This document shows, one piece after another, positions 1-63,323 of a stretch of DNA of 63,323 nt. The position numbers and the translations under genes were made by a program. The notes beneath the pieces were generated by a model that saw nothing but the letters and a program-made list of their open reading frames with translations, searched no databases and had not been told where the DNA came from. The stretch comes from Gekko japonicus (lineage: Eukaryota): contig NW_015168044.1 of the NCBI RefSeq assembly GCF_001447785.1, positions 2,775,343-2,838,665 of the forward strand. Direction: 5' to 3'. Numbering within the stretch: position 1 is the first letter of the stretch; every line of letters starts with the position of its first letter.

Positions 1-603
1 AGACTTCATGTTCCTGGGATCCAAGATCACTGCAGACGGTGACTGCAGCCATGAAATTAAAAGACGCCTGCTCCTGGGGAGGAAAGCGATGGCGAACCTA
101 AACAGCATGATAAAAAGTAGAGACATCACCCTGCTAACAAAAGTCCGCATGGTCAAAGCAAATGTATTCCCAGTAGTCATGTATGGCTGCGAAAGTTGGA
201 CTATAAGGAAGGCCGAGCGCTGAAGAATAGATTCTTTTGAACTATGGTGCTGGAGAAGACTCTTGAGAGTCCCTTGGACTGCAAGAAGATCAAATCAGTC
301 AATCCTAAAAGAAATCAACCCTGACTGTTCCCTGGAAGGCCAGATAATGAAACTGAAGCTCAAATACTTTGGCCACCAAATGAGAAGGGAGCACTCACTG
401 GAGAAGACCCTGATGCTGGGAAAGAGAGAGGGTCAAAGAAGACGGGGACGGCAAAGGATGAGATGGTTAGACAGTGTCACCGATGCAACAAACATGAAGT
501 TGAGCCAACTTCAGAGGACGGCAGAAGACAGGAGGGCCTGGCGTGATCTGGTCCATGGGGTCGCGAAGAGTCGGACTCGACTGTGCGACTGAACAGCAAC
601 AAA
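1..603 (+). mobile_element. BovB (RTE-clade) LINE, 3' part running off the window edge
   Basis: Translation FLGSKITADGDCSHEIKRRLLLGRKAM...MRVPWTARRSNQSILKEI...RQRMRWLD...HGVAKSRTRL is the characteristic BovB ORF C-terminus. In-frame TGA at 221-223; CTGAACAGCAACAAA tail. Confidence 0.95.
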
Positions 604-9740: not shown

Positions 9741-11075
9741 TTAGTAAACAATCGTGGCTACAAATAGAGCAACAAGAAATACTTCCAAAACCCCTACATT
9801 AAATCATCTGGCATTCTCTCAGTGGGGCTTTTTTGACATCTCTACATAACCCATTTTTAAAGTATACACTACAACTATGGCAGAAATATAGACAAATATT
9901 GGCCCCAGGTGTTTCAACCATAGCTGCACTGTTCGGACAGACCTGGTTCCCTCTGGGCATGGACTCCTCCTTTTTATATAAGATTAGAGACAAAGGTATA
10001 TTTAGAATTGGTGATTTTATAATTAATGAAAACATTAGTACCCAGCAACAGCTTGAAAACAAATTTGATATTACGCTTCCTTGGTTGCAATATTTTCAAT
10101 TAAATCATGCTCTACATGAACTTATCTCTTCTTCTCCATTAGATAGATCTTTAACATCTTTTGAGCAATTTGTTAAGAAACAAGGTAATGGAATACAAGG
10201 ATTGTTAGCACTAAGTGTTAAGTGTAAAAAGTTGGAAGGCACTCACTGCTATACAACAGGCTTGGCATAAAAATTGTGGTATAACATTTTCAGAAAAACA
10301 ATGGCTACATATTTGGTCGTCTAATTTATTTACAAGTCGATCTTCACAATGTAAATTACAACATGTTAAAATCTATACAAGATGGTATTTAACACTGGAG
10401 CGTTTGTTCAAAAGCAAACTTAAGGCCTCGCCTATTTGTTGGAAGGGATGCAACACAGCTGGAACCTTCATACACTGTTGGTGGGCATGTCCTAAAATTC
10501 AATCCTACTGGAACAACATTTTGAATGAAATCAAAAAATTTACTGGATACAGTCTCCATAACTCGCCGGAATCCATTCTCTTAAATTACTGGCCTGATTT
10601 ATAGCTTTCCAAACAACACAGAGAGTTAATTTCACTTCTACTTGTTGCGGCAAAGAACTTTATAGCTTCGGTCTGGAAGTTACCAAGAGTTCCTACACTC
10701 GCACAACGGAAAAACAAACTTTGGGACATAGCAGTTTCTGATAAAATAGCAATGCAATTGGTGGCAATGGACAACCCTACTTCTACCAATGACTTTTTAG
10801 GAAAATGGTTAGTGTTCTTTGATTATGTTACAGCACATCAATCGGACCAATATAAGCTACCACACAAATATAAGAACTTTGTTTTTTATTGATGGTCCTT
10901 AACATTAAGAGTGGACTATTGATAGTCAAATTATTCCATGTCTAATGTTTTCATGGTTGTAATTATTTGTTTATTCTGATTTAATAACTTTTCAATACTT
11001 CACCTGTTGTAACCCCTATACTATATTGTTATGTTTTATGTACTTAATATAAAATTAATACAATATTATTTGCAA
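9741..11075 (+). mobile_element. 5'-truncated L1/Tx1-type LINE (ORF2 3' end plus 3' UTR), frameshifted
   Basis: ORFs 9833-10270 and 10215-10604 include CWKGCNTAGTFIHCWWACPKIQSYW (L1 C-terminal zinc knuckle); candidate TSD ATAATAATTTTT at 9729-9740 and 11076-11087. Confidence 0.85.
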
Positions 11076-18000: not shown

Positions 18001-21000
18001 AACAAGCAGCAGCTTCAGCTATACAAACACTGGAGAGTGAAACTACCTGAGCTCCACTCCAATGAAATACATGGCAGTACAGCACTGACAAAGTTGCAAA
18101 GAAAATGCAGAATGGATTTCCCATTAAGGTCTCTGAGCCCAGATAGACTACTCTGGGACTGGAATGATAGACCCCAGAGTGGAATTCCATTCCCAGAATG
18201 CTGCTGCTATTCCCAGGGGCTGTCATTCCACTCTGCGCCCTGTCATTCCAGTCCCAGAACACAGATTTTATTNNNNNNNNNNNNNNNNNNNNNNNNNNAA
18301 GATGGAGGGAGCTGGCAACTTTGGAAGCCTCAAGCTTCAAAGGGTGAGGACAGGAGGGTGAAGAGGGGAGAAGAAAAGAGCTACGGGCCAGATTAAAGCC
18401 ATGGGCAGGCCGCTTCCGGTCCGCAGGGTCTGCCAGAGGAAACGAAGAAAAATGGAGCTAGTGTAGGGAGTAGGAGTGTGCACTAACCCCCCCTCCCCAG
18501 TAAAATTTGGATTTGAGGCTATTCAGGGCTAACATTTGGGATTTCCAAATATCCCCAAATACTAGGTTCAGCAATGCTGGCTGGTTTGGGAGATATTCAG
18601 GAATCCCAAATATATGGCTGCATGGTACCCTATGGACCATTAAAGTCAATGGCAAGATCTCACAGGGTATAATCTGGGGGCTGGGAAGGAGGGGGTTTGA
18701 GGGAGAGGCACCAAATTTGCTGTGTAGCTGCTGGAGCCTCTCCCCAAAAGAACCCCCAAGTTCCAAATACATTGGACCAGTGGATCCAATTCTATGGGCC
18801 CCCAAAGAGGTTGCCCCCATTCCCCATTAGTTCCAATGGTGGGAAAAGTGCTTTCAGTGGGCTTGGGGAGGGGGTTTGAGGGAGAGTCACCAAATTCACA
18901 GCGTGGCTGCTGGAGCCTCTCCCCATATGAACCTCCAAGTTTCAAAGACATTGGACCAGTGGACCCAATTCTATGGGCACCCAGAGAGGTTGCCCCCATT
19001 CCCTCCATTTTTTCCTATGGTGGTAAAAAACCTAACCCAGCAAACAGCAAGGCAGGCAGGCACCCAGCAGTCAGACTTTCCCAGGGAATCTCGTGGGAAG
19101 TGACCTGTTGGAAGGTTGCTTGTTTGCAAGGAGCCTTAACACTGCTATGTGCCCAGCAGAACAAGTGCCACTGTGGCAGCGCAAGTGCCACACCGAAATC
19201 CAACAGGACACACTTCAAACCAAGAATCTCTGTTTTACAAACTGAGCGGAGGCCTTTCTGCAAAGACAGCAGAACCCTGTGCCACTGCTAACCTGCCCCC
19301 CCCCAAGCAACAAGAAGGAACAATCTAAACAGGAAAACTTTCAAAAGCCCATCCTTCAGAACAACAGTGGATGTGCAACAACCAACACAAACCAGAACTT
19401 AAAAGAAGGCACACTATTGATTTTGAAAAGCAACCCAAAACCCACCAGCTCCCCCCTCAAGGAACCCAAAAGGAATAAAACTAGCCAACAGTAAAACTTT
19501 TTGAAACAGGAAAACAAACATTTAAACTTTTAAAACATTTAAAACACTTAAATTTTAACTTTAAGCAAAGTTGAACTGAGCAAAGTCAATCCCCCCCAAC
19601 ATCCACCCAACAGAACCCACCCACCCAGACCAATCAATCCACCCACTCAACACAGGATACATAAAAGAAGACTTAAAAACCATTTTAAATTTTCTTTTTT
19701 TAAAAAAAGTTATATTTTTCCGAACCCTCTTTAGTCCAGTCAGGCAGGAGTCCACCACGGTCCAGCAGGGAAGAGACAGGCAGGCCAGGCACAGGGCAGC
19801 TGAAGCCAAGCCAAGGCCAGCAGCTACACAGTGTCTCCAGCCAAGCAGCCAGCCAGCCAGCAGTGGAGTCTAGTAGCCACTAGGCAGGACTCCTACTTAA
19901 ATGCTCTCTGGCCATTCACAGAACACTTTCAAAAAAGAACACTGTCCTGTGATTGGACAAAGAGCTTTGCAAACTGCAATCCTATTGGCATAATTGCAAG
20001 TTCTCCCTTCCTCATCCCAAGCAAGGTAGGTGGTGCTGTGCTGGGGTGGACCAGCAGCAAGCAATGTCAGCCTTGCAAAGAGCTGCACCATGTATATGTA
20101 ATTTGTAGATACATGGCAGTGATTGGGTGTAAGCTGCCCTCTTCCCCCTACCCCTCCCTCCATAGCGCATGGCATCCAGAGAAGAGGCAGGAAAAGCCCT
20201 GAATTGGTGGGAAACCGGAAAGGCAGGAGGAGGTAAGGGAGTATTTTGAACTTTAACATACACACCCTTCTAACTGTTTCCCACCATTATTCAGGGCTGC
20301 TGTATTCAGCATGATGAATCAGATTAGAGAATCTGATTTGGCATTTGGGGAGCCCGAATACTGCCAAATAAGCAGTATTTGGGCTATTATTCGGCTTGGC
20401 TGAGCTGAATGCACATCCCTAGTAGGGAGGGGGGCTACACCTATGAGTCCTTGTGGGTCCCCCACATCTAATATAATACCTCTTGGGTATCTAATAAGTT
20501 TAATAATTGTTATAACTAATGGCTTAGCTTGGTGCTAAGGAAATTAACTTGGAAGGAACCCTGGTCTTATTTGGATGTGATTGTAAACATCAAAAAGTAA
20601 CTAATTGGCTTGTGGCCCACAAGGGGTTCTAGGTTGTTCACAAACCATGGTTTAGTGTTATGTCTGATGCTGGCCTTTTGGCATAACCCTTGTATTGTTG
20701 ATTCAGATAAAATGTACATGTATAGGTATTACTTAACACCTAAGCTGTTCAATCATATTTACAAAATCAGGTGCTGGAAGTGCAAATTTCTTAATATAGA
20801 TCATCATTGATACTGATGAGTGTGTTATAGGTTTGCTGATTTTAGGCTCTGATTTAGGGAACCCTGCAGCTCCTCAAGTACAACTGCCAGGGAATAATAG
20901 TGTGTTCTAGAGTGCTCATTTAGTTCATGTAGAGAAATTGTGAGGCCCAATGTACCTGCCCCATTAATGCCCTGCATTAATTGAGTACATACACTACATG

Positions 21001-38185: not shown

Positions 38186-38629
38186 TCACTGTGCATGTTT
38201 ATTGGCACAAGTTGTGATGTAATGGGCCATCTCAAAAGCCTTCATGTTTAATGTTCCTCCCTGTATACCCTTCTGGCCAATCAGGATTAGGCACACAGAA
38301 TTGACCAGGACTACAGTGATGGCATGGGTGCAGCTCTCTCCATTGTCACGATAAAGCTTGGTCCGGAGATCCATACTGTATTGATGGGCATCTGTATAGA
38401 GATTATCACGTATGACGAAACACTTGAGGCCACCAAGGGTCAACCCTTGGGTAAGCAGGTTTTCTCTGTTCCTGCCAAGAAGAGCTTGGATCTCTGGCTT
38501 GGTCAGTTTCGCCAAGATGCCCCCTTGGTGGGCAGCTAAGAATTGCTGTTGAGCTACTGACAGAACTGCTGCATCCCAGCACAATCCATCTTTCATCAAG
38601 CTGTTGATGTGTTCCTGCCAGACAGTCAT
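38186..38629 (-). CDS. Divergent profilin-family protein, single coding exon, 147 aa
   Basis: Profilin motifs: N-terminal W, DG.C.DAA, GLTLGGLKCFVIRDNL, SMDLRTK, LIGQKGIQGGTLN..AFEMA. Open full-length ORF; minus-strand AATAAA at 37879-37884; pyrimidine-rich acceptor 42 nt upstream of the ATG. Confidence 0.9.
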   Translation of the reverse strand: MTVWQEHINSLMKDGLCWDAAVLSVAQQQFLAAHQGGILAKLTKPEIQALLGRNRENLLTQGLTLGGLKCFVIRDNLYTDAHQYSMDLRTKLYRDNGESCTHAITVVLVNSVCLILIGQKGIQGGTLNMKAFEMAHYITTCANKHAQ

Positions 38630-39639
38630 CTGGTGATCAAGAAGGCTTTGCAGTTAAGTCCGCCCTGCAGCCTGTTCAGAAGACGGGGAAGAGAGTTCTC
38701 CTTTGAGCTTCCCTGTGGATGTTAGGCTAATATTCCACTCCAATAATCTCCAGGTTGGACAGATGAACAGAATCTATGAAAATAGCTTTTTGTCCATCAC
38801 ACAATGTGCTTTGTCTCAAAAGAATTATTTCAAGTTAAGAGGAGGTGAGGATGCTGATGCTTGCTCATAAGTGCATTTCCTTCCAATGCTGGCAACTATT
38901 CCCAAGGGTAGCTCAAAGTGGAGGCTTCTGGATTCCCAAATCCTTCAGTAGTGTCCTCAATACCTGGTAGCTACTGAAAGCTTGGCATCTTTTCATGGAC
39001 TTTACCTTAGAAACCTGCTAGAATTTTGGTAGCAGTAAGATTCACTGGCTTTGATGTCATAAAGAGAATTTGAGCAGGTCGAGTCAATCCTTTGTGTGTG
39101 TTAGTATGATTTTCTTGATGGTCTTTGTCTGAACTTCTCACTGTGTAGTCTTCTGATGGCCTTTGTCTGAACTTCTCATTGTATTCCATACAGACAACCT
39201 GTTTACCATTCACTGGCATCTGATGTGTGATCAAACTCTCCTTCCCAGTTCGTAGGGTCGTGCAGGCTTGCCTCAATGAAGTGTGCTGAATCGCCACAGT
39301 ACATTGTGGTCCATATGGACCCAGTGTATGTCTCAGTAATTTCAGCCTTTCAGTCCATTTGTAAATCGACTAAGCTCTTTTTTTAATGCTTTATGAATGA
39401 TCCAATTTTAGGTGCTTCAGATAAAAGGAAGAATCCAGAAACCACTGACCCCTCCCATCGGCCTTCTCTTGTTTTGAAGTGAGAGACTGCACTAATAAAA
39501 AGTTACAGGCTTTTCCACTTCTGTATTTAAACATCTTGAATGCTTTATTTATGATCGCTTACTGTTTAAAGACGAAGCTGCAAAAGGAATGATCTACTAC
39601 TGCTGTAGCTTCTTAGAATGAGAGATATTGAGAAACACT

Positions 39640-39900
39640 GAGTAACACAAAGTTCTGGATTCTGGCACGGCCTAGTGGAAGAGAACCAGTAAAGAGAAGC
39701 AGATCGATGTAGAAGGTGGCTCCGCTCAGCATTACAGGGTCCGAGAAGGCGGTAGGCACAGCGGCCTGGCCCAGGCTGTAAGTGGACTGCCATGCAAGGT
39801 GTTGGCCCCTCTCTGGGTCTGGTACAATAAACAGAAAGGACGTGAGGCAGGCAGGGAAGGGGGACGCTGAGCACGGACAGCTTCCTTTGGTGGAAACTGA
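39640..39900. promoter_or_regulatory. GC/CpG-enriched patch between the divergent profilin and PARP11 ORFs; possible promoter or 5' UTR
   Basis: Local CpG enrichment directly upstream of the PARP11 ATG and about 1.1 kb upstream of the profilin ATG. Confidence 0.4.
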
Positions 39901-39933
39901 GCCTGTTGTCATCTAGATGGTTTCAAGGTGACG

Positions 39934-40905
39934 ATGAATTCTCAAAATGTGGCAAGTCAATTTGAAGAAATGGATACATCTGACACCCAGTGGGGATGGT
40001 TTTACTTGGCTGAATGTGGGAAATGGCATATGTTTGACACTGATTCCAGTACTCACTGTTCAGTTAGCACAGAAGACATTGAAAGGAGCTTCAGAATGAA
40101 TCCACAGGGCTCTGTTTGCTTCACAAGCGCAAAATTTACTTACACATTAGACTTTTCAGGGATGAAGCAGACCAACCTAACAACTGGAAAACAACGTCCC
40201 ATAAAACGGGCTCCATTTTCCATCACTGCTTTCAGTTATGTCTGCGAAAACCAGTCTATCCCTATACCTTCACACTGGGAGAATGTAAACTCTGAAGAAC
40301 CTTACCAGCTTATTCCTTTGCAAAAGCAGACAAAAGAGTATAAAGATGTTGCTAGTCTTTTTGGGAAAACAATGGAAGGCAGTTGGATTAAAGGAATACA
40401 GAGAATTCAGAATCTAGACTTGTGGGAATTTTTTTGCAGGAAAAAGAATCAGTTAAAGAAGAAAAGAGGCGTCTCTTTCATTAATGAACATATGTTGTTT
40501 CATGGCACCAGTGGCGAGTTTGTGGAAGCCATCTGCATTCATAACTTTGACTGGAGAATCAATGGCATGCATGCTGCTGTATATGGAAAAGGGACGTATT
40601 TTGCTAGGGATGCATTGTATTCGAGCCGCTTCTGCAAAGACGACATGAAGCACAGCAGTACGTTTCAGATTCATGGTGTTGATCTGCAACTTCATATGTT
40701 CAGGAAGCATAAAGTGATGTTTCTTGCTCGCGTATTGACTGGAGACTATATTACTGGGGACTCAAAATACGTGAGGCCACCTTCAAAAGATGGGAGCTTT
40801 GTAAATCTGTATGACAGTTGTGTGGACAACACATGGAATCCGAAGATTTTTGTTGTCTTTGATGCCAACCAGATCTATCCGGAATATTTAATAGAGTTCA
40901 GCTGA
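39934..40905 (+). CDS. PARP11: Protein mono-ADP-ribosyltransferase PARP11 (WWE + PARP catalytic domain), intronless, 323 aa
   Basis: MDTSDTQWGWFYLAECGKWHMF (WWE), RIQNLDLWEFFCRKK, MLFHGT, YGKGTYFARDA, YDSCVD..WNPKIFVVFDANQIYPEYLI match PARP11 end to end. H-Y-I catalytic triad retained; no internal stops; first ATG at 39934 (the track starts at GTG 39928). Confidence 0.95.
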   Translation: MNSQNVASQFEEMDTSDTQWGWFYLAECGKWHMFDTDSSTHCSVSTEDIERSFRMNPQGSVCFTSAKFTYTLDFSGMKQTNLTTGKQRPIKRAPFSITAFSYVCENQSIPIPSHWENVNSEEPYQLIPLQKQTKEYKDVASLFGKTMEGSWIKGIQRIQNLDLWEFFCRKKNQLKKKRGVSFINEHMLFHGTSGEFVEAICIHNFDWRINGMHAAVYGKGTYFARDALYSSRFCKDDMKHSSTFQIHGVDLQLHMFRKHKVMFLARVLTGDYITGDSKYVRPPSKDGSFVNLYDSCVDNTWNPKIFVVFDANQIYPEYLIEFS

Positions 40906-41471
40906 GACTTCGGGGGGGCAGATCAGTTGTATTCACCCCCTTTATTTCAGGTGGCCAATTACTTCTTGTAAAGAAAAGTTCTTTAGCAGGTTTAAAAAAA
41001 AAGAAAAGAGAAGCAGATCCAGCAATATGCTTTAATGTTGTCCTTTTTATTTCTAGTTATACTACTTCATATGTGCAGTTGGTTGCTAACCACAGAATTA
41101 AAGAAACCCTCTCTTTGCTGGTGATTTCCTTTGCACTTTTGCACTAAATGGCTCCCTCCCCTAAAGAAAAGCTGTGCCATTTTCCTTGTACATACATATT
41201 CCTTGTTCTTTATTAACATCTCCAACCCCTCTCATTTGACATAAAACCTTCCTCCCTTCCGAGTGTCCTTCACTTCCACCCTACCCCACATCCCATCCGT
41301 GTGTTTCAGCCCAGTTTCCCTTGCTCCCATCTATGCAGCCAGTGCCTTTCAGTCTCCACCTCAGCCTTTACTTCGAAGCTAGTAAAAAAGCAGGGAATCA
41401 TCAGCATAAATCCCTGCCTTTCCATACTGGGTTTGATGATCTTCAATGTATTGGCTTAGTAGGCCAGAAGT

Positions 41472-41598
41472 TCAGTCTAAAGCAAGTTTTTTCAGAGCTG
41501 ACGTGGCAGATGCAGCTCCCTTGGACTCTTTCATCTTCTCTAGGGCAAGCAGAAGGTCAAGCTGGGTAAGTGGCCGTAGCTGTTCCTCTTCCAGGTCA
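41472..41598 (-). CDS. atad1a: atad1a-like last coding exon
   Basis: (S)[44 protein letters not shown]; minus-strand AATAAA at 41209-41214. Confidence 0.9.
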
Positions 41599-44500
41599 CT
41601 GGACATGGACACACACATGGACACACACAAAAGAAAAACCAGACAGGGCTCATGGAATAATGTTTGAAATAAGGTAAGAACTTCTCAGCTTCCTGAGTTT
41701 TCTTGACCATGAGTCCTTTGCATTTGCAGTTACTAAAGATAATGTTTTTGCCAATGCCCTTCATTGCAGCTGCAGCATCTACCCACACCCTGTTTGTTTG
41801 AATATGTGCCATTTTTAGAACTGCAAAGTAGAAGAGAAGTGGCAGTATAATTATGTGACTCTCTCATTAATTTCAAGAGGAGATTATCACGTTCTTGCAA
41901 GTCATGCCAGTAAGGCATCATTTAGCAATCCTTGGGGTAGAAGACATATCAAGTAACCATAACCTGAATGATACCATTGGTTCCCCCAGCTCTTCATTGT
42001 CTCCTATGATTGGCAACAGCTCTTCAGGGTCTCGGTCAGAGAAAGGTGTCCTTTAAGTGGAGATGCCAAAATGTTCTACAGGCAAATCATCTACTTCAGG
42101 AAGCAGTATCCTACCTTACTACTGTACCATATTCATCTCTGTTCGCATGGACCTATGAACATATGAAGATGCCTTAGGCCAAGGCCTTCTTTCCCTCCCC
42201 CCCTTCCGCATTTTTGGCTTTGAGTTCCTTCTCCCCCTGCCCAGAAAATGGCCAGGTAGTCCAGAACCAGGATACAAAATGTACAGGATGCCATCTTGGA
42301 TCTCTTTATTCTGGTTCTCTTAGTTTTTATCAAATTGTAAATTGAATTGTACTGTTTTGTATATTTTTACGGCATTATGCCCCCCTCCCCCCGTACATCA
42401 GCCAAAGCCCAGCATAATTGGGGACAGGGCGATTAACAAATTGAACTAAGAATAATAGTACTAATATTGGCCCGCTTAGCTTAGTGTTGTCTACCCCTCT
42501 TGGCAGTGGCTCTCCAGCATCACAGGCAGAAAAAGATATTTGCTAGCACTTGAGGCCCTTTTTGTAGTGAGTGGGGATAGAACCTAAGAAGTGTAAAACG
42601 TGCTCTACCTCCCATAGTGCATCATGGCTCTTCCCATGTGGTGTTGCTGAAAGCCTGGGCCACAGAGGAAGAATCCTTGCTTCAGTTTCTTCCTGTACTA
42701 ATGTTGCTCCAGTACCAAGATGAGACAACAGCTTGACCTCCCACCATGTGGCCTTAAATCTCTACCATTATCTAGAAAACAAGGCTGGACAGATGAAGGT
42801 TTGTTACATATTTCATGATGTCAAAAGCTGATGAATCTAGGGAACTGGGGTCCAGCGGCTTCTGGCGACAGTGCCAGGAAAGGTCAGGTGCAAGGAGAGA
42901 AGGGCTGTGGGATGAACAAAGGCTCACCTGTCCTCCTCGCTGTCTGTATCGTGGAGCATCTGTGCAATCTGCTTCATCTGCTGCCTGCGAACATAATCGC
43001 GTACCCTGTGCATGGCAGCATCCCGGCACAATTCTCGCAGGTCGCTGCCCGAATAACCATTTGTTTTCTCAGCCATCTCCTTCAGGTCCACAGCATTGCT
43101 TAGCTGTTCCAAGAGCAAAATTCCCCTCAGAGTTATAATGGTTGGCCCATACTTGCTCCCTGCACTGTCACAGCGTTGCTACACCTAGGCAGAGGGTCAG
43201 GTCTTCCTGCTTCCCTGTTCTGCCTTCTAAGGAATGAAAAACTTCTCATTAATCTTTTGGCCCTTCCTCCTCCTACTGAACCCTTATGCTCTCAGCAGGC
43301 ACAAAATGAGTGGCGATATGATCTTAAGGGTTTAGATTCCACACTTCAAAATCAGGCTGACCTCACAGATACTCCCTCTCTGCTGGGGACCTTGAGAAAT
43401 GTAGTTCTGTGAGAGGAGTGAGTGATCTTTAACAAAATTCTCAGTACTCATCATGTGTCCACATTTTCTTTGTGAAGGAAGTTCACTTAATTTTTTTCAG
43501 GCCTAAATTCCCTGGATTCCTTTAGAGGCTGAGTTATTTGAACTCTTAAGGGATTTTTTCCTTTGTTAGTGTTAGCACATGAGCTTTGTTTTAATGTTGT
43601 AAAATAACTGGTAGTTATTTGTACTTTTTGATTCTAACATCATTTTTGTAGTTTTAATGTTATGTGCTGCTTTGAAACCAAAACAGTGCCTAACAAAAAT
43701 ACCTGCAAATATATCAATTACAGTTCCTGGGACTCTTCTGGGAAAACTTATATACATTTGTGAGATAGACTTTTCAAATCTATAAAAGTATTCTTGACCA
43801 ATACTGTTGTGTTCCCCGCTATCCAATCTAGTTTACGGTTTATCTCTGTCTGGTGAAGCTACAGTTCTGAAACAGAAAGGGGAAGCTGGGGGGGGGAGCA
43901 AGACTCACATTTTCTCCAGACAAAATGAGTTTCAGAATATCCTGCCGTTGCCTCTGTGTCTGAAGAAGACAGAAAAGAGCATGGGATTGAGAGACTATTA
44001 GAACTGGAGGCTGAGAAAATAATGACAAGCTAATATTTTTGCTGAGTCCCTAGAGTATGCAGAAACCTGCATTTGGTCTGTGAGTAGCCTTGTTTTGTTG
44101 TCCTGCTGCTTGAGAGTAAACTTGATGTTGCTGTGCCTGTTGAAAGGAGTGATACTGCTTCTATACTAGAAGGCTCCATTTAGTTATCATTACTAATAGG
44201 TCTCCCAGTGGCTTTCATTAACTGTTCTTAAAATTCCAGTTGTCATGACCATCGCCTGTTTTTACACCAGGCAAGCCTCCTAATTAGGCTTGCTCAGGGG
44301 ACATGGGAGAAAGAGGCAAGATTGGATTTTGTCACTGCAGATGGAGGAACATGAGGAATCCTTCCGTAAGTTAAAAATGCCCTGCAAATAGAACACAAGC
44401 AGAGCAGGGGGGCAGGTCCTTTGTCTCTGCTGGACTAGTTTTCGCATTGATTTTTTGTTTCATGCAAAGGAACATACAAAATAAGAGTCGATTTGCTGTA

Positions 44501-47500
44501 GTTTGAAGAGGTGTTGTCCATTCTACTACCTCATCCTCCTGCATATGTGGCATTTTAAAATGTGTGTGTTGACTATCCCTTGAAGTGAATGTATGATCTT
44601 GTCCTTGGAGCTGTCAATTTTGGTCCACCATTTCTGTTGCTTGGAATTATTTTTATCCTGATTTGTCTGATTTTTCTAGATGGGGGCTGCTTCTTAAACA
44701 ACATCCCAGATACGTGCAATTGTTTTTATTATTATTATTATTATTCTTAAGGGTTTCTCCCTATTAATTGCTTATAGCAGGATGAACAATTCTTTTAATG
44801 CCAGGGAAAGCAGATTTTTAGAGGAACTTAGCGTCAAGAAAACCATTTGAAGGAAACAGATTTTTGAGTCTGAGCCTTGCAAGCTTAATATTGGGCAGCT
44901 TTAGGAGGGAATAAGTCTGGATGGTGACTGGATTTAGGGGAGAGCAGTAAAATTTACTTACAGGCAGACCAATCTGGAAGGTTGTGGGCATCCTCCGCAG
45001 GATGGCAGGATCCACATCTTGGGGCCTATTGCTTGCTCCCAGCACCATCACCTGGAATGCAACAAAGCGGCTAGTTAGATTGTCACCTGATAAAAGAAAT
45101 GTTAGTTGATTAACTGCATGAGATTTGACTGCTGCATGAGATTTGACTGATGCTCAATTTGCATATGCTTGTATGTGGATATAACAAAAGGTCTTTGTGT
45201 TTGACTAGGATACTGGAAAACTGTATAGAGATCCCCACTCAGTAGCAAAGCTCAGGCAGGGCTAAAAATGGGGATTTGTATATTGGTCTCTCCCCAGTTA
45301 CAGCCCAACACTCTAAACCCAACACCACAGTGGCTCTCTAAGTCATCACTGTCCAGGGAAGGGGAATTTAGCAGGCCAGGGAAGAAGTTACCAGCCATTT
45401 GGGCTTTGCCCTCACAGCTGATCAGTGTAAATGTAATAAGATGGTGTCAGGGCTGGAACCTGACCCCTTGTGAGAGCTGGAGTTCCCACAAGAAGCCGGG
45501 ACAAACAGCGAGGCATGTGCAGTGTGCCAGGCCTTCTTCAAAAGGGTGAGGGAGGCTGGCCAAGGAGGGCAATTTACCCTCTTGTTACTGGCTGTGTGGA
45601 CAGGCGCCAAAGGAAGGGAGTCGGAGGAGGGTGCTGTAAATGCTCTCCAAGATAGAATTACCAACACTGGGTTGGGAAATTCCTGGAGATTTTGGGAGCG
45701 GTGCAACAGAGGAAAAGGCAGGAAAAATTACAGCTGATGGAGGAAAGTGTGCACAAAGCTGCCATGCGGATATTCAGTTGCCTTGCTCTGCCTTGCTTCG
45801 TGTCATCTCAACCAACGGCTTCCTGGTAAGTGGTACCTGGCAATTGGGTCCAGTTTCCAGCCCATCCCAAAGGCTCATGAACTCTGCTTTCATCATAGCT
45901 GTGGCTTCATGATCAGCATCGGAGCGGTTCCTCAGGAAGGCATCTGCCAAGAGGGATAAAAAGAATGGCTCAGCATTGGACTTCTGTCCTTCTCTGCACT
46001 GGCATCTACTTCCACTCCACTAGCACCTTGAAAACATTTTTCTCTTTTGACCTAACCTAAATCTTACATTTTCTTTTCAACAGAAATCATGAAATGCAGC
46101 CAGTAGGAGTGTTCAAAAGTCTACTTGTGTCTCCTGTTATAAGATCCCACATTTCTGGCTGTCCTGAATCTCTTTGTGGAACAGGCAGCAAAGGTGCTAC
46201 TGGAAAGTTGGTTGCAATGGGAAGGTGTTCCATTCACATTTGGAGAATCTGAAATCTCTCAAGTGAGAGAGGATCTCACAGAACTGCATAAGGGGATATT
46301 ATAAGCTGCCTTCATTTCAGACTTGCTTGCATGTCTAGCAACTAACATATCCTAATGAGAGGAGCAAAGACTGCCATCTTTAAGAAGCCTGGGGATAAGA
46401 TATCAGGAGCTAATGCAAGTGTACAAAGGTAGGCAGCATCCAGTGTTCACCCAGTCAGCTGAAGCCCATCCTTATTGCCACAATTCCATACATATGCCTA
46501 TTATTTGGTGGGCATTTTGCTAAATTTTCAGTCGGTTTCAGGCCTGCACAGCTTCTTGCAAATACTTGCTGATGAAGCATGAAATGCAGGTTTAACTCTC
46601 AGCCCAATTACAGACTTGATTTAAATCCATTCCTTCCTTTCCCTCAGCATCAGTGTTTCCGTCAGCATAAGAGGAATACTTGCAATACTTTAATGATTTG
46701 CCTTTAGATTCAAGAATATGGTGCAATCTGAAATCCATCCTGTTCTTTAAATTCTCCAAACCACACTAAATCTTTCTCTCTATAAAAGGTGTTCATATTG
46801 CAAACATTACACATGAGTTATCCCTTGGTCACTTTACTGCAACAACAACAAAAAAGGTAAGGGTTTCACTTGATCAAACGAACACTGACCTAGCACAGTG
46901 GTCTGCTTACAACAATGGCACTTCTAGGAAGCCCCTGAGCAAGACCCCAGTACAAGGAAGAACTCAGCATTGTGTTGGGATAAAGGGGCTGAGATGCAAC
47001 AGAGTTGCATAAAAAATACCCAGTTATCATTTTTAGCAAAGGACTGTAACTGGCATCCTCACTACACATTAATATACAACGCAAAGATAATAAATACATT
47101 CAGCTGTGTGATTAAACTTGGGTCTGCCCCAGTCATGTCTGGGGAAAGGACACATTTACTACATTATGGGTTTTTCTGCATGTCTAATATTTATCGCTTC
47201 TGTGCCCATACTGTGTCATTGGGATTTTTTTTGTTTTTGCTTTCAAAATGTTCACAAATAAACAGGAGATGCAGTGATGAAATACCAAAGTGATCACTAG
47301 AGGATGCAAAACACTTGTGGAGAAGGAAAAAAAAACAACAACCTGAGGCAACACAGGCACACAAACAAGGGTAACAGGCGCAGAAAAGCCCTGAGAAAGG
47401 AGAAAGGTGGGTGGGCCTAGAAACAGTCTAGGTAAATCAGTAAACAAGCCCTGCCCTCATTCATGATAGTCTGTCCCCTCGCAGGGCTCTTTTTTTTGCT

Positions 47501-50500
47501 TTCAAAATGTTCACAAATAAACGGGAGATGCAGTGATGAAATACCATATTGATCACTAGAGGATGCAAATCACTTGTGGAGAAGGAAAAAGGATTGGCTA
47601 CATTAGGGATGTGTCGCCTAATATGTAGAGGAGTTCCTGCTACAAAAAGGCGGCTTCAGGTACTTTTCTCCTTTATCAAATTCTGCTCCCAGAACAAAGC
47701 TGGGATGTGAAAAAAGTGCTTGTGAGGAGAGACTGTGGTGACGCAAGAAGCAAGCCAGAGGAGGGTGCAGCTCCCTTCACCTACATGTTCCATTTCTTTC
47801 AAGCTATAACTTTCCCCCTTGTTAACTATTAAAAAGATATAACTATAATTGGGGAAATGAAAGAGCAGGCAGGGATGTAGAAATTACCTATTTCATCTAT
47901 GAAAATGATGCAGGGTTGGATCTTGGTTCCCAAGGAGAAAACTGCAGCCGTGAGCTTCTGTGACTCTCCATACCATTTGTCAGTCAAGGTAGAGGCTTGC
48001 AGGTTTATGAACCTGCATCCCGATGCCTGGGCTGTTGCTTTGGCAAGAAGGGTTTTGCCACAGCCAGGAGGACCATAAAGCAAAACACCTGGTGCAAGGA
48101 GAAACTCATTAATTCTCAGTCTCCCCCCTTCCTTGCCAGGCTTTATTCCCCCCCCCATTGTTTTTTTTGCTTGTGTGAAAAAGGAACGTTCTTCACATGA
48201 GACTTCAGTAGAAGAGAGCAAGCATCCAGTAGCATCTTAAAGACTAACAACAGTTGTGGTAGGGTATGAGCTTTCATGAGTTACTGCTCACCTCTTCAGA
48301 TACCACCTTGCTTTATCAGTATGAGACTCCAGTGAGTGTTTAATGAAACCTGCACCAATCTTAACATACAAATGTGACTCATATACTGCAGCTGGTACAA
48401 CCTGACTGCTTACAGTCCAAGGTAAGCAGCAAAAGCAGAAGCGTTATGTTTCTGTAAAGCTAGGATTTTTTTATTTATTGCTCTGTTCAACACACCTACA
48501 TGGTTCAAAAATGTCCAGTTCCTTTTTCATGGGGCTACTGATAACAATTTAAAATTTGATAATTTTTTCTCTAGTGGAACAACAAAGATTTTTTTCTTCA
48601 AATGCATGTGATAAATAATGAGTTTAAGTTTAAATAATCTTTCATAAATGTGGTTATACTGGGTTTAAATTGAATGTTTATTATTTAAATATTTAAAGTA
48701 CCTTTCATAAGTGTTGATACATTGGGTTTAACTTGAATGTTCATTTACTTGAATCCTGTTTTAATGCAGATTTCAAATATGGAAATATAGATATCACCTT
48801 TATCTTTAAAGAAATAATGCCCACTCAAATTTTGTTAATACAACAGAACACCTGTTAACATTCCACTTCACAAAGTATTGGAGGCAAACACTTTTTATAC
48901 TGCAAATGCAGAACTGACTCTGTATCCATGCAGACATACTGTGAAACAGTTTTACCTTTCTCCTTCCTAGCTAGCTCTCATAACTGTTTGGGAGAAGACT
49001 ATCATTCTCAGAAAACTGCTGGGTATTTATTAAGCTGCCATTAAGTAAGGAGCTTTACACCCCTCTATCCATCACTCCTTGGGATCTAGGCTCCAGCAAA
49101 TGAGTGGAGGCAGATCCTGTCAGAGGTCCAGAAAGGCTTTTGAGGCCCTTAGCCATTAAAAGAAACCTTAGTTGTGAAACGTATCAGCCAAAAAATAAAT
49201 GTCTTGAGGTCCCTTTGAGTCTGATGCCAAATGGCCCTCCCTCTGACTGGCTGTGAATGGGGTTTTTAAAAGAGGCAAGTCTGAGAAAAGGTACTGAGTG
49301 ATTTATGACTGGCTCTTCTCCAAGGTGTACCTCGTGGGGGTTGGCAGAGCCTGGAGTGATGGAACAAGTGCCTCTGCTGGAAAGGCAGGATCACTGTGTC
49401 CTGAAGTTCGCTGACCACTTCATCCAGGCCCGCGATATCCTTCCAAGAGACCTGAAAATGGAACAGCATTTGGAGCCTTCAGAGATAACAAGAGGACTGT
49501 AAGCTACCTGGCAAGGGAAGCCAAATGCTGCATGCTGGCATTTCAGATTTTGGAATTGGCATGTATTCATCCCTTGCATGGTGATGGAGTTCCATTAATT
49601 ATATGTAAAAAATTCATTTCCATTTTCATTCAATTCATTTTCAGATTTTTGCAATCTCATATCTGCTGATAGCTTTATCCCCCTTTACTCCCACCTTGAA
49701 AACTCTCTAGTCTTCATCAGGGGGAACAGCAAGCTCCCCTTCTTACTTGTATGTCCTTCGGGTCCACCAAGTGAGCTGCGATGTTCATCTCATGTTCTGT
49801 AAGCTTCACTCCTTCTACTCCAATCTGCTTCATCAAGCGTTCTGCCTGCAGAAAAAAGACAACGGGTTCAGGTCCCACTCTTGCCCTGTGGCTGGCTCAG
49901 TCAACACAACCTTTCATTATGGTTCTTCCTAGCTGTTTATTTACACCTGAAACTACTAGAATATGCACAGATTGTAATAGGTTAAACTGCAGTATAGCAA
50001 AACTCCACCCCCATTCTTTCTTTCTAGTGTATTTGGAAGATTTTGTATCACGCGATACAGTCAGAGACTGTATGGGAAACAGTTGGACCATTTTATCATG
50101 TTCCCCGAATACAGTTTTGGTAGCTACCCATTATCTCCAGATTCAACACTTGTCAGCAGTGACCAGGGGTGTAGTCACACGGTCCATCTGATCGGGGTTC
50201 ACCACTGTTCTCTCTCGCATTTAAATTTTCTATTCACATGTGCCAATCGGCCTCCTGTGCCGAAGCAGGCTCACTCCCTAAATGCTCCCGGGTTTTCCTG
50301 CCCCCAGGGAAAATCAAGTATTTTCCTGGCACTTGCGCTTTGAATGTGCGATTTTGCCCATCTGGACAGCCATCTTTTGCAATTATTGTGATTAGGGCCG
50401 CTCTGACCACTCTGTGCGATTTTTTTTTTAACTTTCTGGCTTTGAGTGCTTGAGTAAACAAGTGCTCATCCTGCTTGGAGAAAAGCCCTGCCCGCCGTCC

Positions 50501-52749
50501 CCCGGCATGGAGGCAGCTTTGAAAGTTTTGGGGCGGGGGGGAAGAGTAAAAAAGACTTTGCCTGACTCCAAAAGGTAATAGAATCAGTGCCAGGGAAATA
50601 GATGTGGGGAGACCACCTACAGTCAAGGTGCCACAACAGAGAAGGCCCTGTTTCTTAGAAAACAACAACCAATATCACTCTAGAAGGTGGGGTTGCATAG
50701 AATGGAACTTCTGATAGTTACTTCAGTATTGATGGGCCTCATGGGAGTAGATAGTCTTTTATAAGCTCTGTTGTTATTATTCCCTCAAGCTCCAGTAAAA
50801 TTGCAGCCACTATGGCAAGCTTTTGGTTCCAGGTCAGGCAGTACTCTGGTTCAAATCTTCTCTGTAAAGGTCACCTGGCACTTTTCAAGACCAGCCTCAC
50901 CCCTCACCCCCAACTTGATACTTTCCTGCCATCACAGAAGGTGGATTACAAAGGATAAGGCAATGCACTAAAAACAGGTGATACCTACAAATAATAAGTG
51001 CAGTGGATTACAATCCTGTTCCATCTAAAACAAAAAAGTGCCCCCTGTTGGTGCCACCACCATTTTCATGCTTCTTTAGGAGTTTTTAAAAGGAGGTAGG
51101 TGAGGGGAAATTGATAAAGATATCTTAGCCACATCAACTAACATTGATATAAGGGGAAATCGTCTAAAATTAATGATTAGATGGCATTATACTCCTGTTA
51201 AATTAGTGTCTCTGAACAATGTTGATGATGCCTTCAGGAGAAAGGCTCGTTCTACCATATAAATGCTCTTCCACCAGGCCAGCTCTTCCACCAGGCCTTC
51301 GACTAGGAGCCACCACCAATAACATCAATTATAGTAGTAACATCAATTAACATTAACTGAACTGGAGAATACGGACTAACTATGCCAGATGCCGATGGGG
51401 GCCATTTTTTGGGAACATCTATCATAGCCACCGGGTTGTTATTGTCTCCAGCACTTAATTTTCATTTTATTCTATTTTATTGTTGAGCTATGCTTGTCAT
51501 GTTTGTGTTTTAATGTGGTTTTAACCCTTATCGTAAACTGCCCTGAGCATGCCTGTGGCGGGGAGGGTGAGATAAAAATTGAATAAAATAAATAAAATAG
51601 TTCTGAGAGAGACCATATATAAAGTGTTAAGTGAAATCATAGCCCACAGAGTGGAACGCTCATCATTTTAAATTTTATTTGGCCAAATGGAGCACTCATT
51701 AGATTAGCTGTATGGTCACAACTTAAGAAATTTGATGGTGGCTGCAAGGTTGCGATTGCAGGTCATTGGAAGCAATAGACGACACCATCTATCGAAATCT
51801 GGCTGAGGAAACATTGGTTAGCTATGGTGATGGAGAAAACTGCAGAGTGTAAGCAATTAAGGGAAGGAAACATAAGTGCAGTCAGTACAAAGATGGTCTC
51901 TGTTCATAAATTATTGGAACAGAATTAAACCTGAAGAACAGACCAAGCTTGTGATTCTTAGTAGTATATGAAGGAATTGTTCAGAGTAAACATGGTAATT
52001 TACTTATTTACTAATTAATTAGATTATAAATTGATTTAAGCTTTTATTAAGAAGGTGATACATGTTGTATTGTATACATTTATACTGTTCAAATGTTTTT
52101 CTTTTCATTTTTGATAGCCACACTTTGTGTGTAGAAGATTGCTATTTGATTTGATTATGTTATTGAGCTTTGTCTTTTTCTCTTTGTAAACTATTGTTAT
52201 TTAACAAAACTAAAAAATAAAAGGAGAAACAGGCAGGGGGCAGTGGAAGAACCAGGAGAAAGACTGATCACTGTCACTGTATGCTGTAGGGGACAGGCTA
52301 TGCTAAAAGCATATATTTTCCTCCAGATTCTGATTATGTGGATGTATTTCTAATAATTAGTCATATGAAGTAGTCTTCACAGCAGGGTAACCTTGATAAA
52401 CATGTGTGACCCTCTTGGGACTCCATACCAGAAGACAAGAGTAAGAGTCCCATAGCACCTTAATACTAACAAAATTTGTAGTCGGTATCAGTTTTCCTGA
52501 ATCAGATGCTCCATAGTTATACAGTAGGTGATTCCATCACCACCACCTCTTTGATGACATAGTCCTCATAGGTACCTTTTTCTTTAGCTGTATCCTTTGC
52601 TTTCGAGTGGGGTCCAGGACATCTGATACCCACTTTATGCTGAAATATGTGGCAGCTCCAAAGACAGTCAGGCGGAGAAGGACAGCAAACACTTCATTTT
52701 GAGTCAGTGGTCGGGTTAGGAGGTCCTTGGAAATTTCCCCTAGCAACAT
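41472..52749 (-). CDS. atad1a: ATAD1/Msp1-family outer-membrane AAA+ dislocase, atad1a-like paralog; 9 coding exons, 1146 nt, 381 aa
   Basis: Exons (minus) 52576-52749, 49747-49845, 49331-49451, 47888-48088, 45837-45943, 44962-45051, 43909-43959, 42928-43103 and 41472-41598 all have GT-AG boundaries and join in frame. N-terminal TM, Walker A GPPGCGKT, pore loop KWYG, Walker B IIFIDEID, and [18 protein letters not shown] are present. Confidence 0.93.
42928..43103 (-). CDS. atad1a: atad1a-like coding exon 8
   Basis: [58 protein letters not shown]. Confidence 0.92.
43909..43959 (-). CDS. atad1a: atad1a-like coding exon 7
   Basis: [17 protein letters not shown]; CAG acceptor, GTGAGT donor. Confidence 0.9.
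44962..45051 (-). CDS. atad1a: atad1a-like coding exon 6
   Basis: [30 protein letters not shown]; CAG acceptor, GTAAGT donor. Confidence 0.93.
45837..45943 (-). CDS. atad1a: atad1a-like coding exon 5
   Basis: (D)[35 protein letters not shown]; not in the ORF track, read by hand. Confidence 0.93.
47888..48088 (-). CDS. atad1a: atad1a-like coding exon 4 (Walker A and B)
   Basis: (G)[66 protein letters not shown]. Confidence 0.95.
48263..48304 (-). ncRNA. Minimal type-I hammerhead ribozyme motif in a Penelope-derived remnant
   Basis: Minus strand GGUAU CUGAAGA G GUGAG cagtaa CUCAU GAAA GC UC AUACC: 5-bp stem I, intact core, 5-bp stem II, palindromic AGCU in place of stem III. Confidence 0.6.
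49331..49451 (-). CDS. atad1a: atad1a-like coding exon 3
   Basis: [40 protein letters not shown]. Confidence 0.93.
49747..49845 (-). CDS. atad1a: atad1a-like coding exon 2
   Basis: [33 protein letters not shown]; CAG acceptor, GTAAGA donor. Confidence 0.93.
51650..52222 (+). mobile_element. Degraded L1-type 3' end
   Basis: Fragmentary [20 protein letters not shown]...MEK, resembling the L1 ORF2 terminus, then a T-rich UTR and A-rich tail. Confidence 0.55.
52576..52749 (-). CDS. atad1a: atad1a-like coding exon 1 (TM anchor)
   Basis: [58 protein letters not shown]. Confidence 0.93.
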
Positions 52750-62162: not shown

Positions 62163-63323
62163 ATTTGTTCTTCAGTCGCACAGTCGAGTCCGACTCTTCG
62201 CGACCCCATGGACCAGATCACGCCAGGCCTTCCTGTCTTCCGCTGTCCTCTGAAGTTGGCTCAATTTCATGTTCGTTGCATCTATGACACTGTCTAACCA
62301 TCTCATCCTTTGCCGTCCCCATCTTCTTTGACCTTCAATCTTTCCCAGCATCAGAGTCTTCTCCAGTGAGTGCTCCCTTCTCATTTGGTGGCCAAAGTGT
62401 TTGAGCTTCAGTTTCATTATCTGGCCTTCGAGGGAACAGTCAGGGTTGATTTCTTTTAGGATTGACTGATTTGATCTTCTTGCAGTCCAAGGGACTCTCA
62501 AGAGTCTTCTCCAGCACCATACTTCAAAAGAATCTATTCTTCAGCGCTCAGCCTTCCTTATAGTCCAACTCTTGTAGCCATACATGACTACTTGGAATAC
62601 CATTGCTTTGACCATGCGGACTTTTGTTAGCAGGGTGATGTCTCTACTTTTTATCATGCTTTTTAGGTTCACCATCGCTTTCCTCCCAAGGANNNNNNNN
62701 NNNNNNNNNNNNNNNNNNNNNNNNNNNNNNNNNNNNNNNNNNNNNNNNNNNNNNNNNNNNNNNNNNNNNNNNNNNNNNNNNNNNNNNNNNNNNNNNNNNN
62801 NNNNNNNNNNNNNNNNNNNNNNNNNNNNNNNNNNNNNNNNNNNNNNNNNNNNNNNNNNNNNNNNNNNNNNNNNNNNNNNNNNNNNNNNNNNNNNNNNNNN
62901 NNNNNNNNNNNNNNNNNNNNNNNNNNNNNNNNNNNNNNNNNNNNNNNNNNNNNNNNNNNNNNNNNNNNNNNNNNNNNNNNNNNNNNNNNNNNNNNNNNNN
63001 NNNNNNNNNNNNNNNNNNNNNNNNNNNNNNNNNNNNNNNNNNNNNNNNNNNNNNNNNNNNNNNNNNNNNNNNNNNNNNNNNNNNNNNNNNNNNNNNNNNN
63101 NNNNNNNNNNNNNNNNNNNNNNNNNNNNNNNNNNNNNNNNNNNNNNNNNNNNNNNNNNNNNNNNNNNNNNNNNNNNNTCTCTTTAAGGCCCTGCCATAGT
63201 TTGTTGTGATCCACACAGTCAAAGGCTTTAGCATAGTCAATGAAGCAGAAGTAGATGTTTTTCTGGTACTCTCTTGCTTTCTCCATAATCCAGCGAATAT
63301 TGGCAATTTGATCTCTCATTCCT
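62163..63323 (-). mobile_element. BovB (RTE) LINE spanning an assembly gap
   Basis: RDQIANIRWIMEKAREYQKNIYFCFIDYAKAFDCVDHNKLW (RT domain) and MRVPWTARRSNQ...KSRTRLCD; nearly the same sequence as 1-603, in inverted orientation. Confidence 0.95.

Follow-up and report, generated by a model that had tools for sequence, protein, structure and literature searches.

Retrocopies made by L1 elements carry a poly(A) remnant, a target-site duplication and fused exons (PMC5131818), all of which the copy described here shares with the L1 retrocopies and functional retrogenes of vertebrates. It differs from them in having a squamate host, a 5′ end that appears full-length and a cut site that only loosely resembles TT/AAAA, and in being known from sequence alone. 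Retrocopies are common in lizards, so that one more is unsurprising: in Anolis, 404 are reported, of which 217 are intact and about a third are called retrogenes, with testis the commonest tissue of the expressed retrogenes (41.7%) (PMC3136929), and retrocopies outside mammals, birds and turtles are described as mostly species-specific (PMC13320880). PMC4772013 counts 11 head-to-head cases less than 2 kb from a gene among 230 expressed retrocopies in human and 12 among 243 in mouse (about 5%), a placement that the present copy shares. The same source describes orphan retrogenes, for example RNF113, and these resemble our copy in being intact, intronless and away from the ancestral locus; unlike in their case, a second full-length PARP11 exists in Gekko japonicus, and parent loss is not indicated. 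Mammalian PARP11 is reported to modify nuclear-pore proteins and β-TrCP, to promote loss of IFNAR1 and to be needed for sperm-head shaping (PMC9189837, PMC8240438). No description of a gecko PARP11 retrocopy was found in the literature searched; it may be listed in RetrogeneDB, in RCPedia or in a supplement such as the VGP tables. The retro-OTUD4 copy inside intron 1 of human PARP11 on chromosome 12 (PMC4122923) is unrelated. As an example of LINE-driven gene retroposition in a squamate, the gecko locus is clean, with all scars still readable.

Within the window (the whole stretch of G. japonicus DNA analysed, 63,323 nt), an ORF scan revealed 323 uninterrupted codons followed by TGA (Table 1). 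Both predicted domains beat the curated Pfam cut-offs, and their layout, a single WWE domain followed by the ADP-ribosyltransferase (ART) domain, is that of PARP11; the WWE domain also matches the PARP11 WWE structure 2dk6 (E 1.6e-41, PDB sequence search). The catalytic triad comprises H190 (40501), Y222 (40597) and I305 (40846), with H and Y conserved in 42/42 reference orthologues and I in 40/42; an H-Y-I triad is given as a PARP11 feature in PMC9189837. These references are named, near full-length tetrapod and coelacanth proteins taken from the best 120 matches, leaving out fish, fusions, short isoforms and unnamed matches. The 323-codon frame with its WWE domain, catalytic domain and triad, as reported in the initial annotation, is confirmed.

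Among the best 120 of 164 matches, the top-scoring ones carry the PARP11 name, the closest being a G. japonicus PARP11-like protein (P0002, 95% identity), Heteronotia PARP11 (95% over 87% of the length) and Eublepharis PARP11 (91%). In a tree of 20 rows, with no paralogues in it, the ORF is nested in a clade of five gecko PARP11 proteins with support 100/99. The best solved relative of the ART domain is the catalytic domain of PARP12 (2pqf, 6v3w; E 5e-52), and W151 of the ORF aligns with an aromatic residue in these structures. PARP12 is a paralogue that, unlike the ORF, has zinc fingers, and it is not the parent.

Table 1 Features of the PARP11 insert and its surroundings
Feature	Position	Strand	Basis or remark
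Single-exon profilin-like gene	38186..38629	-	Head-to-head; 1.08 kb separate its ATG from the 5′ end of the insert
Target-site duplication, 5′ copy, 15 bp	39691..39705	+	Exact match to the 3′ copy
GC-rich leader, 211 nt, putative 5′ UTR of the parent mRNA	39706..39916	+	Composition
Ancestral start codon, out of the ORF's frame; begins an upstream ORF of 4 codons	39917..39931	+	Three-frame translation against gecko N termini
Intronless PARP11 ORF, 323 aa	39934..40905	+	One open frame; conserved Met13 at 39970
WWE domain, residues 20–92	39991..40209	+	Pfam PF02825, E 2.6e-16; beats curated cut-off
Putative fused exon junction, codon 35	40036..40038	+	Heteronotia X2 and Lacerta X2 isoforms
Mono-ADP-ribosyltransferase (Pfam PARP) domain, residues 133–322	40330..40899	+	E 1.4e-32; beats curated cut-off
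Second putative fused junction, codon 169	40438..40440	+	Sphaerodactylus, Varanus, Sciurus and Sorex isoforms
3′ UTR remnant, 88 nt	40906..40993	+	Without AATAAA or ATTAAA; AAGAAA at 40971
Short A-tail remnant, A9-G-A	40994..41004	+	Abuts the 3′ duplication copy
Target-site duplication, 3′ copy	41005..41019	+	15/15 bp identical to the 5′ copy
ATTAAA in host flank	41097..41102	+	78 nt outside the insert
Nine-exon ATAD1-like gene	41472..52749	-	Tail-to-tail with the insert; stop about 450 bp away

The ORF is a LINE-type retrocopy of a spliced PARP11 mRNA, because it combines a target-site duplication, an A-tail, fused exon junctions and a non-ancestral site. Between the two duplication copies lie the 211-nt leader, the coding sequence, the 88-nt 3′ UTR and the A-tract, and the duplicated sequence, AAAGAGAAGCAGATC, is found at 39691–39705 and 41005–41019 only, within the whole window; extended to 39688, the 5′ copy reaches 18 bp with one mismatch. 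Among 525 control pairs of 1-kb flanks compared without constraint, 7 shared an exact match of at least 15 bases; with the second copy fixed beside the tail position, 2 of 2,719 pairs did. Runs of at least nine A on the plus strand number only two in the window. The duplication had escaped the initial annotation and is the strongest evidence of insertion. The A-rich tract placed there at 40994–41008 is present as A9-G-A at 40994–41004, whereas 41005–41008 already begin the 3′ duplication copy. The ATTAAA motif also listed is likewise present, but it lies beyond the 3′ duplication and is thus host DNA; being a common motif as well (about 0.12 of the window's 200-nt stretches would be expected to have one), it was discarded as a sign of retroposition. 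It could serve as a candidate recruited polyadenylation signal.

The cut site, GT/AAAG, fits the L1 endonuclease site TT/AAAA loosely; GT precedes the 5′ duplication copy, and there is no T-stretch 10 nt upstream. The insertion signature of squamate Bov-B elements, as described in PMC13295347, includes such an upstream T-stretch, and Bov-B appears unlikely as the mobiliser, this signature being missing at the site. A broken, two-frame relic of the LINE-1 ORF2 C terminus lies at 9803–10604 (+) (E 1e-9 for 10215–10604, PDB sequence search). Because the site, although only a loose fit to TT/AAAA, lacks the Bov-B T-stretch, and because the window holds an L1 ORF2 relic, L1 would be the most likely mobilising enzyme. 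Pfam gave no match for the L1 fragment or for the POLR3D fragment mentioned below, and the PDB sequence search matched both.

In humans, the initial annotation had noted, PARP11 is multi-exon, lies on 12p13 and is not next to POLR3D. In the window, an exon within 31573–31962 matches RPC4 (PDB sequence search), so that POLR3D is nearby, further left, but the directly flanking genes are the profilin-like and ATAD1-like genes of Table 1. Once spliced, the window's ATAD1-like gene gives a protein that matches G. japonicus P0139 at 381/381 residues and has 19 differences from that of Heteronotia. In the best-match listings, in which contig assignments belong to protein clusters and two species may mix assemblies, PARP11 and the ATAD1-like gene lie on different contigs in all nine squamates with both (Gekko, Heteronotia, Eublepharis, Sphaerodactylus, Rhineura, Hemicordylus, Anolis sagrei, Pogona and Varanus). 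The profilin-like and ATAD1-like genes share one contig in 3/3 species with both, and in Phrynocephalus their locus tags are consecutive. The separate contigs in 9/9 squamates, together with the adjacent tags in Phrynocephalus, argue indirectly that the insertion site is not the ancestral PARP11 locus.

The positions of the parental exon junctions were deduced from annotated isoform proteins of other geckos, squamates and mammals. Sphaerodactylus X1 and X2 part after residue 168–169, Varanus X2 skips residues 169–191, and Sciurus and Sorex isoforms resume at residue 169; at the other junction, Lacerta X2 resumes at residue 36, and Heteronotia X2 reads residues about 3–35 in the +1 frame and then jumps to residue 44–45. 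All these break points are uninterrupted in the window's ORF, and the isoforms suggest that the PARP11 parent has introns. Where 35 of the 37 references that have a residue at codon 35 show Glu or Gln, the copy encodes Asp, which would be consistent with release from a splice-donor constraint. The suggestion that PARP11 might be intronless at this position throughout sauropsids is contradicted by the spliced isoforms and by the different contigs in the nine squamates. These same two observations, together with the target-site duplication and A-tail, make it very improbable that the gene is not a retrocopy, whether it were an ancestral intronless gene at the site, a product of DNA-level relocation or an assembly artefact, even though the frame is open and an acceptor-like stretch before the ancestral ATG could make the leader intronic. 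A cDNA contaminant is excluded by the 17/320 differences from P0002 and by the lack of a gap nearby, the assembly gaps closest to the ORF being at 18273–18298 and 62693–63177.

The leader has a GC content of 0.58, compared with 0.41 in the flank, and a CpG o/e of 0.42 compared with 0.22; upstream ATGs lie within it at 39707 and 39792. The possibility that it represents the coding first exon of other amniotes was dismissed after comparison with 11 orthologue N-terminal extensions gave no significant match (best E 0.03, its frame being reversed or unrelated; E 0.47 for Hemicordylus). At 39902–39919, the pyrimidine-rich bases that precede the ancestral ATG end in AG and resemble a splice acceptor; the leader may derive from an intron, or the copy may be spliced to an upstream host exon.

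PARP11 of other geckos begins MFQGGD(E/D)F(S/P)QN, and three-frame translation reads FQGDDEFS in another frame than that of the ORF. The ancestral start would have lost its frame through the gain of a single base following the ATG and the loss of two bases some 25 nt further on, sizes deduced from proteins. Now the first of the ORF, the ATG at 39934 corresponds to the out-of-frame start of Heteronotia isoform X2 and is in frame because of the 2-base loss. Met13, conserved and in strong context, lies just N-terminal to the WWE domain, so that both domains could be made from either ATG. The copy was first called intact, which holds for the two domains and the open frame but not for the ancestral start at 39917, now out of frame. 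The start-codon switch makes the locus a small, neat case of a retrocopy surviving early frameshifts.

P0002, the closest relative, is full-length, differs from the ORF at 17/320 residues and lies on a 229-kb scaffold, the ATAD1-like gene being on one of 3.8 Mb. It stands for a cluster of seven sequences, relatives more than 90% identical falling inside clusters. The two proteins are alike in their WWE + ART order and H-Y-I triad; the ORF is intronless, lies at another locus and has an N terminus six residues shorter, a new start codon and 10 private substitutions from Met13. In the 20-row tree the ORF pairs with P0002 (support 91/77, not starred), on a branch twice as long (0.032 versus 0.016). 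Judged from the protein, P0002 is most simply the parent, and the original PARP11 gene has probably been kept in G. japonicus. The ORF itself may already be annotated.

Because another full-length G. japonicus PARP11 lies on a different scaffold, replacement of the parent is unlikely. An orphan retrogene, in which the multi-exon parent was lost and the copy took over, with or without P0002 as a second retrocopy, is accordingly improbable. It would suit the name 'PARP11-like' without an isoform label, the short scaffold, the fact that P0002 is known from protein alone and its G144A change at a 98% conserved column; on the other hand, P0002 retains the ancestral start, the junction residue Glu35 and the shorter branch, as a parent would, and orphan retrogenes are a small class in the account of PMC4772013. 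The earlier proposals of a relocated gene or of a copy that had replaced its parent thus find no support, and a copy that supplements its parent is likely. A single 114-Mb contig of Spea bombifrons encodes two PARP11-like proteins (P0036 and P0076, 69% and 57% identical to the query), an independent PARP11 duplication.

Selection on the retrocopy was assessed against simulated neutral missense changes on its CDS. From Met13 onwards, 10 changes fall on the copy's branch and 5 on that of P0002. Only 1 of the 10 lies in a column at least 95% conserved (4.8 expected, P 0.017, 42 references), and 7 of 10 are to a residue seen in orthologues (2.6 expected, P 0.004, 42 references); the latter comparison gives 4/5, 4/6, 10/13 and 11/13 on functional gecko branches. 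Both statistics remain at P 0.002–0.03 in six settings, whichever of three reference sets is used and whether or not codon 35 is included. The invariant-column statistic was not significant on all 42 references (P 0.12) and gave 0.014–0.03 on the amniote or sauropsid sets, and the mean-conservation statistic was not significant on the 42 (P 0.08). The last 169 residues carry a single change.

With the Gekko–Paroedura Ks of 0.230 at 87.2 million years given in PMC5901865, functional gecko PARP11 has an omega of about 0.07–0.13. The observed branch ratio of 10:5 compares with 7.7:1 expected under neutrality (P 0.022 at omega 0.13), a test that gives P 0.09 if the parent's omega is 0.2 and fails at 0.2 or above. 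A neutral copy would be expected to carry about 38 changes (12–90) rather than the 10 observed, and the split from P0002 comes out at some 44 million years, within a range from 14 to the age of the family. The first 53 of the 989 nt hold both indels (P 0.003) and 3 of the 13 substitutions (P 0.027), values to be read with the bias that an open frame was the reason for selecting this locus. These protein-level proxies provide moderate evidence of purifying selection, and to that extent bear out the initial annotation through the placement and nature of the 10 changes; they lose force should the true parent prove closer to the copy than P0002 is.

A processed pseudogene, young or dying, its frame open by chance or its selection lapsed and its start loss the first step of decay, is possible although clearly less probable than a selected copy. 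The ancestral start is out of frame, the insert holds three upstream ATGs, T65S, N134K and R151W occur in 0/42 references, and R151W and S228L look like CpG decay. The perfect duplication (P 0.63 at 1.5% divergence, 0.17 at 5.6%) better fits a young copy, and at 1.5% divergence the chance that a neutral copy keeps its frame open is 0.19–0.33; of the 404 Anolis retrocopies, 217 are intact, yet only 136 are called retrogenes (PMC3136929). If the true parent were closer than P0002, the selection signal would consist of changes in the parent's lineage. Against decay stand the non-random placement and nature of the 10 changes, the nearly unchanged last 169 residues, the old split implied by the 5 changes on the P0002 branch and the shortness of the A-tail. 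CpG content could not separate youth from constraint (CDS CpG o/e 0.42, twice the window's 0.21). Overall, the retrocopy is probably functional.

It is rather probable that the locus as a whole is a LINE-made retrocopy kept as a functional retrogene while its parent stayed at its own locus, as the second full-length protein suggests. A spliced PARP11 mRNA was reverse-transcribed in trans at a genomic nick by a LINE enzyme, most likely that of L1, and became inserted with the profilin-like gene on one side and the ATAD1-like gene on the other. Loosely estimated, this would have happened in a Gekko ancestor some 15–85 million years ago. Retained as a protein-coding gene under somewhat relaxed purifying selection, it would have taken two indels and three substitutions in its dispensable N terminus, the WWE and catalytic domains remaining unbroken, with translation now starting at ATG 39934 or Met13. 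The predicted product would most likely be a WWE-guided mono-ADP-ribosyltransferase at the nuclear envelope, like PARP11. Its promoter may have been borrowed at the insertion site; the upstream flank contains no CpG island. Under such separate control the copy could supply additional enzyme, male germ cells being the most plausible site, and a germ-line second copy is our best, speculative guess at its role. If expressed, it would offer a natural test of whether the sperm-head and interferon roles divide between two copies. A more specific version, doubtful at present, would see a Gekko-specific selected retrogene that borrowed the profilin-like promoter head-to-head, rebuilt its start through two indels and took the spermatid nuclear-shaping role from an interferon-responsive parent; if true, it would represent a natural split of the germ-line and immune roles of PARP11 in a reptile, with the LINE scar still readable.

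The profilin-like gene has 16 matches at E ≤1e-15 (57–94% identical), the named ones coming from lizards, snakes, turtles and an alligator, with none from mammals or birds. It is possibly an old sauropsid retrogene or a profilin-3-like paralogue; mammalian profilin-3, also intronless, is testis-specific. The ATAD1-like gene is of the fish atad1a type, with its best matches in squamates, tuatara, coelacanth and fishes and no named mammal or bird among the best 120 of 1,375; it may be a paralogue lost in mammals and birds. The main text of PMC5901865 does not mention it. Candidate polyadenylation signals for this gene lie on the minus strand at 41209, 41046 and 41031, just outside the insert, and a retrocopy transcript ending at the ATTAAA at 41097 could overlap its 3′ end in antisense (41031–41214). 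Between the profilin-like start and the insert, a 29-bp local direct duplication, 93% identical, occupies 39116–39182. Towards the ends of the window, two near-identical ORF fragments at 224–592 (+) and 62172–63315 (-) presumably resemble the 3′ ends of Bov-B/RTE LINEs.
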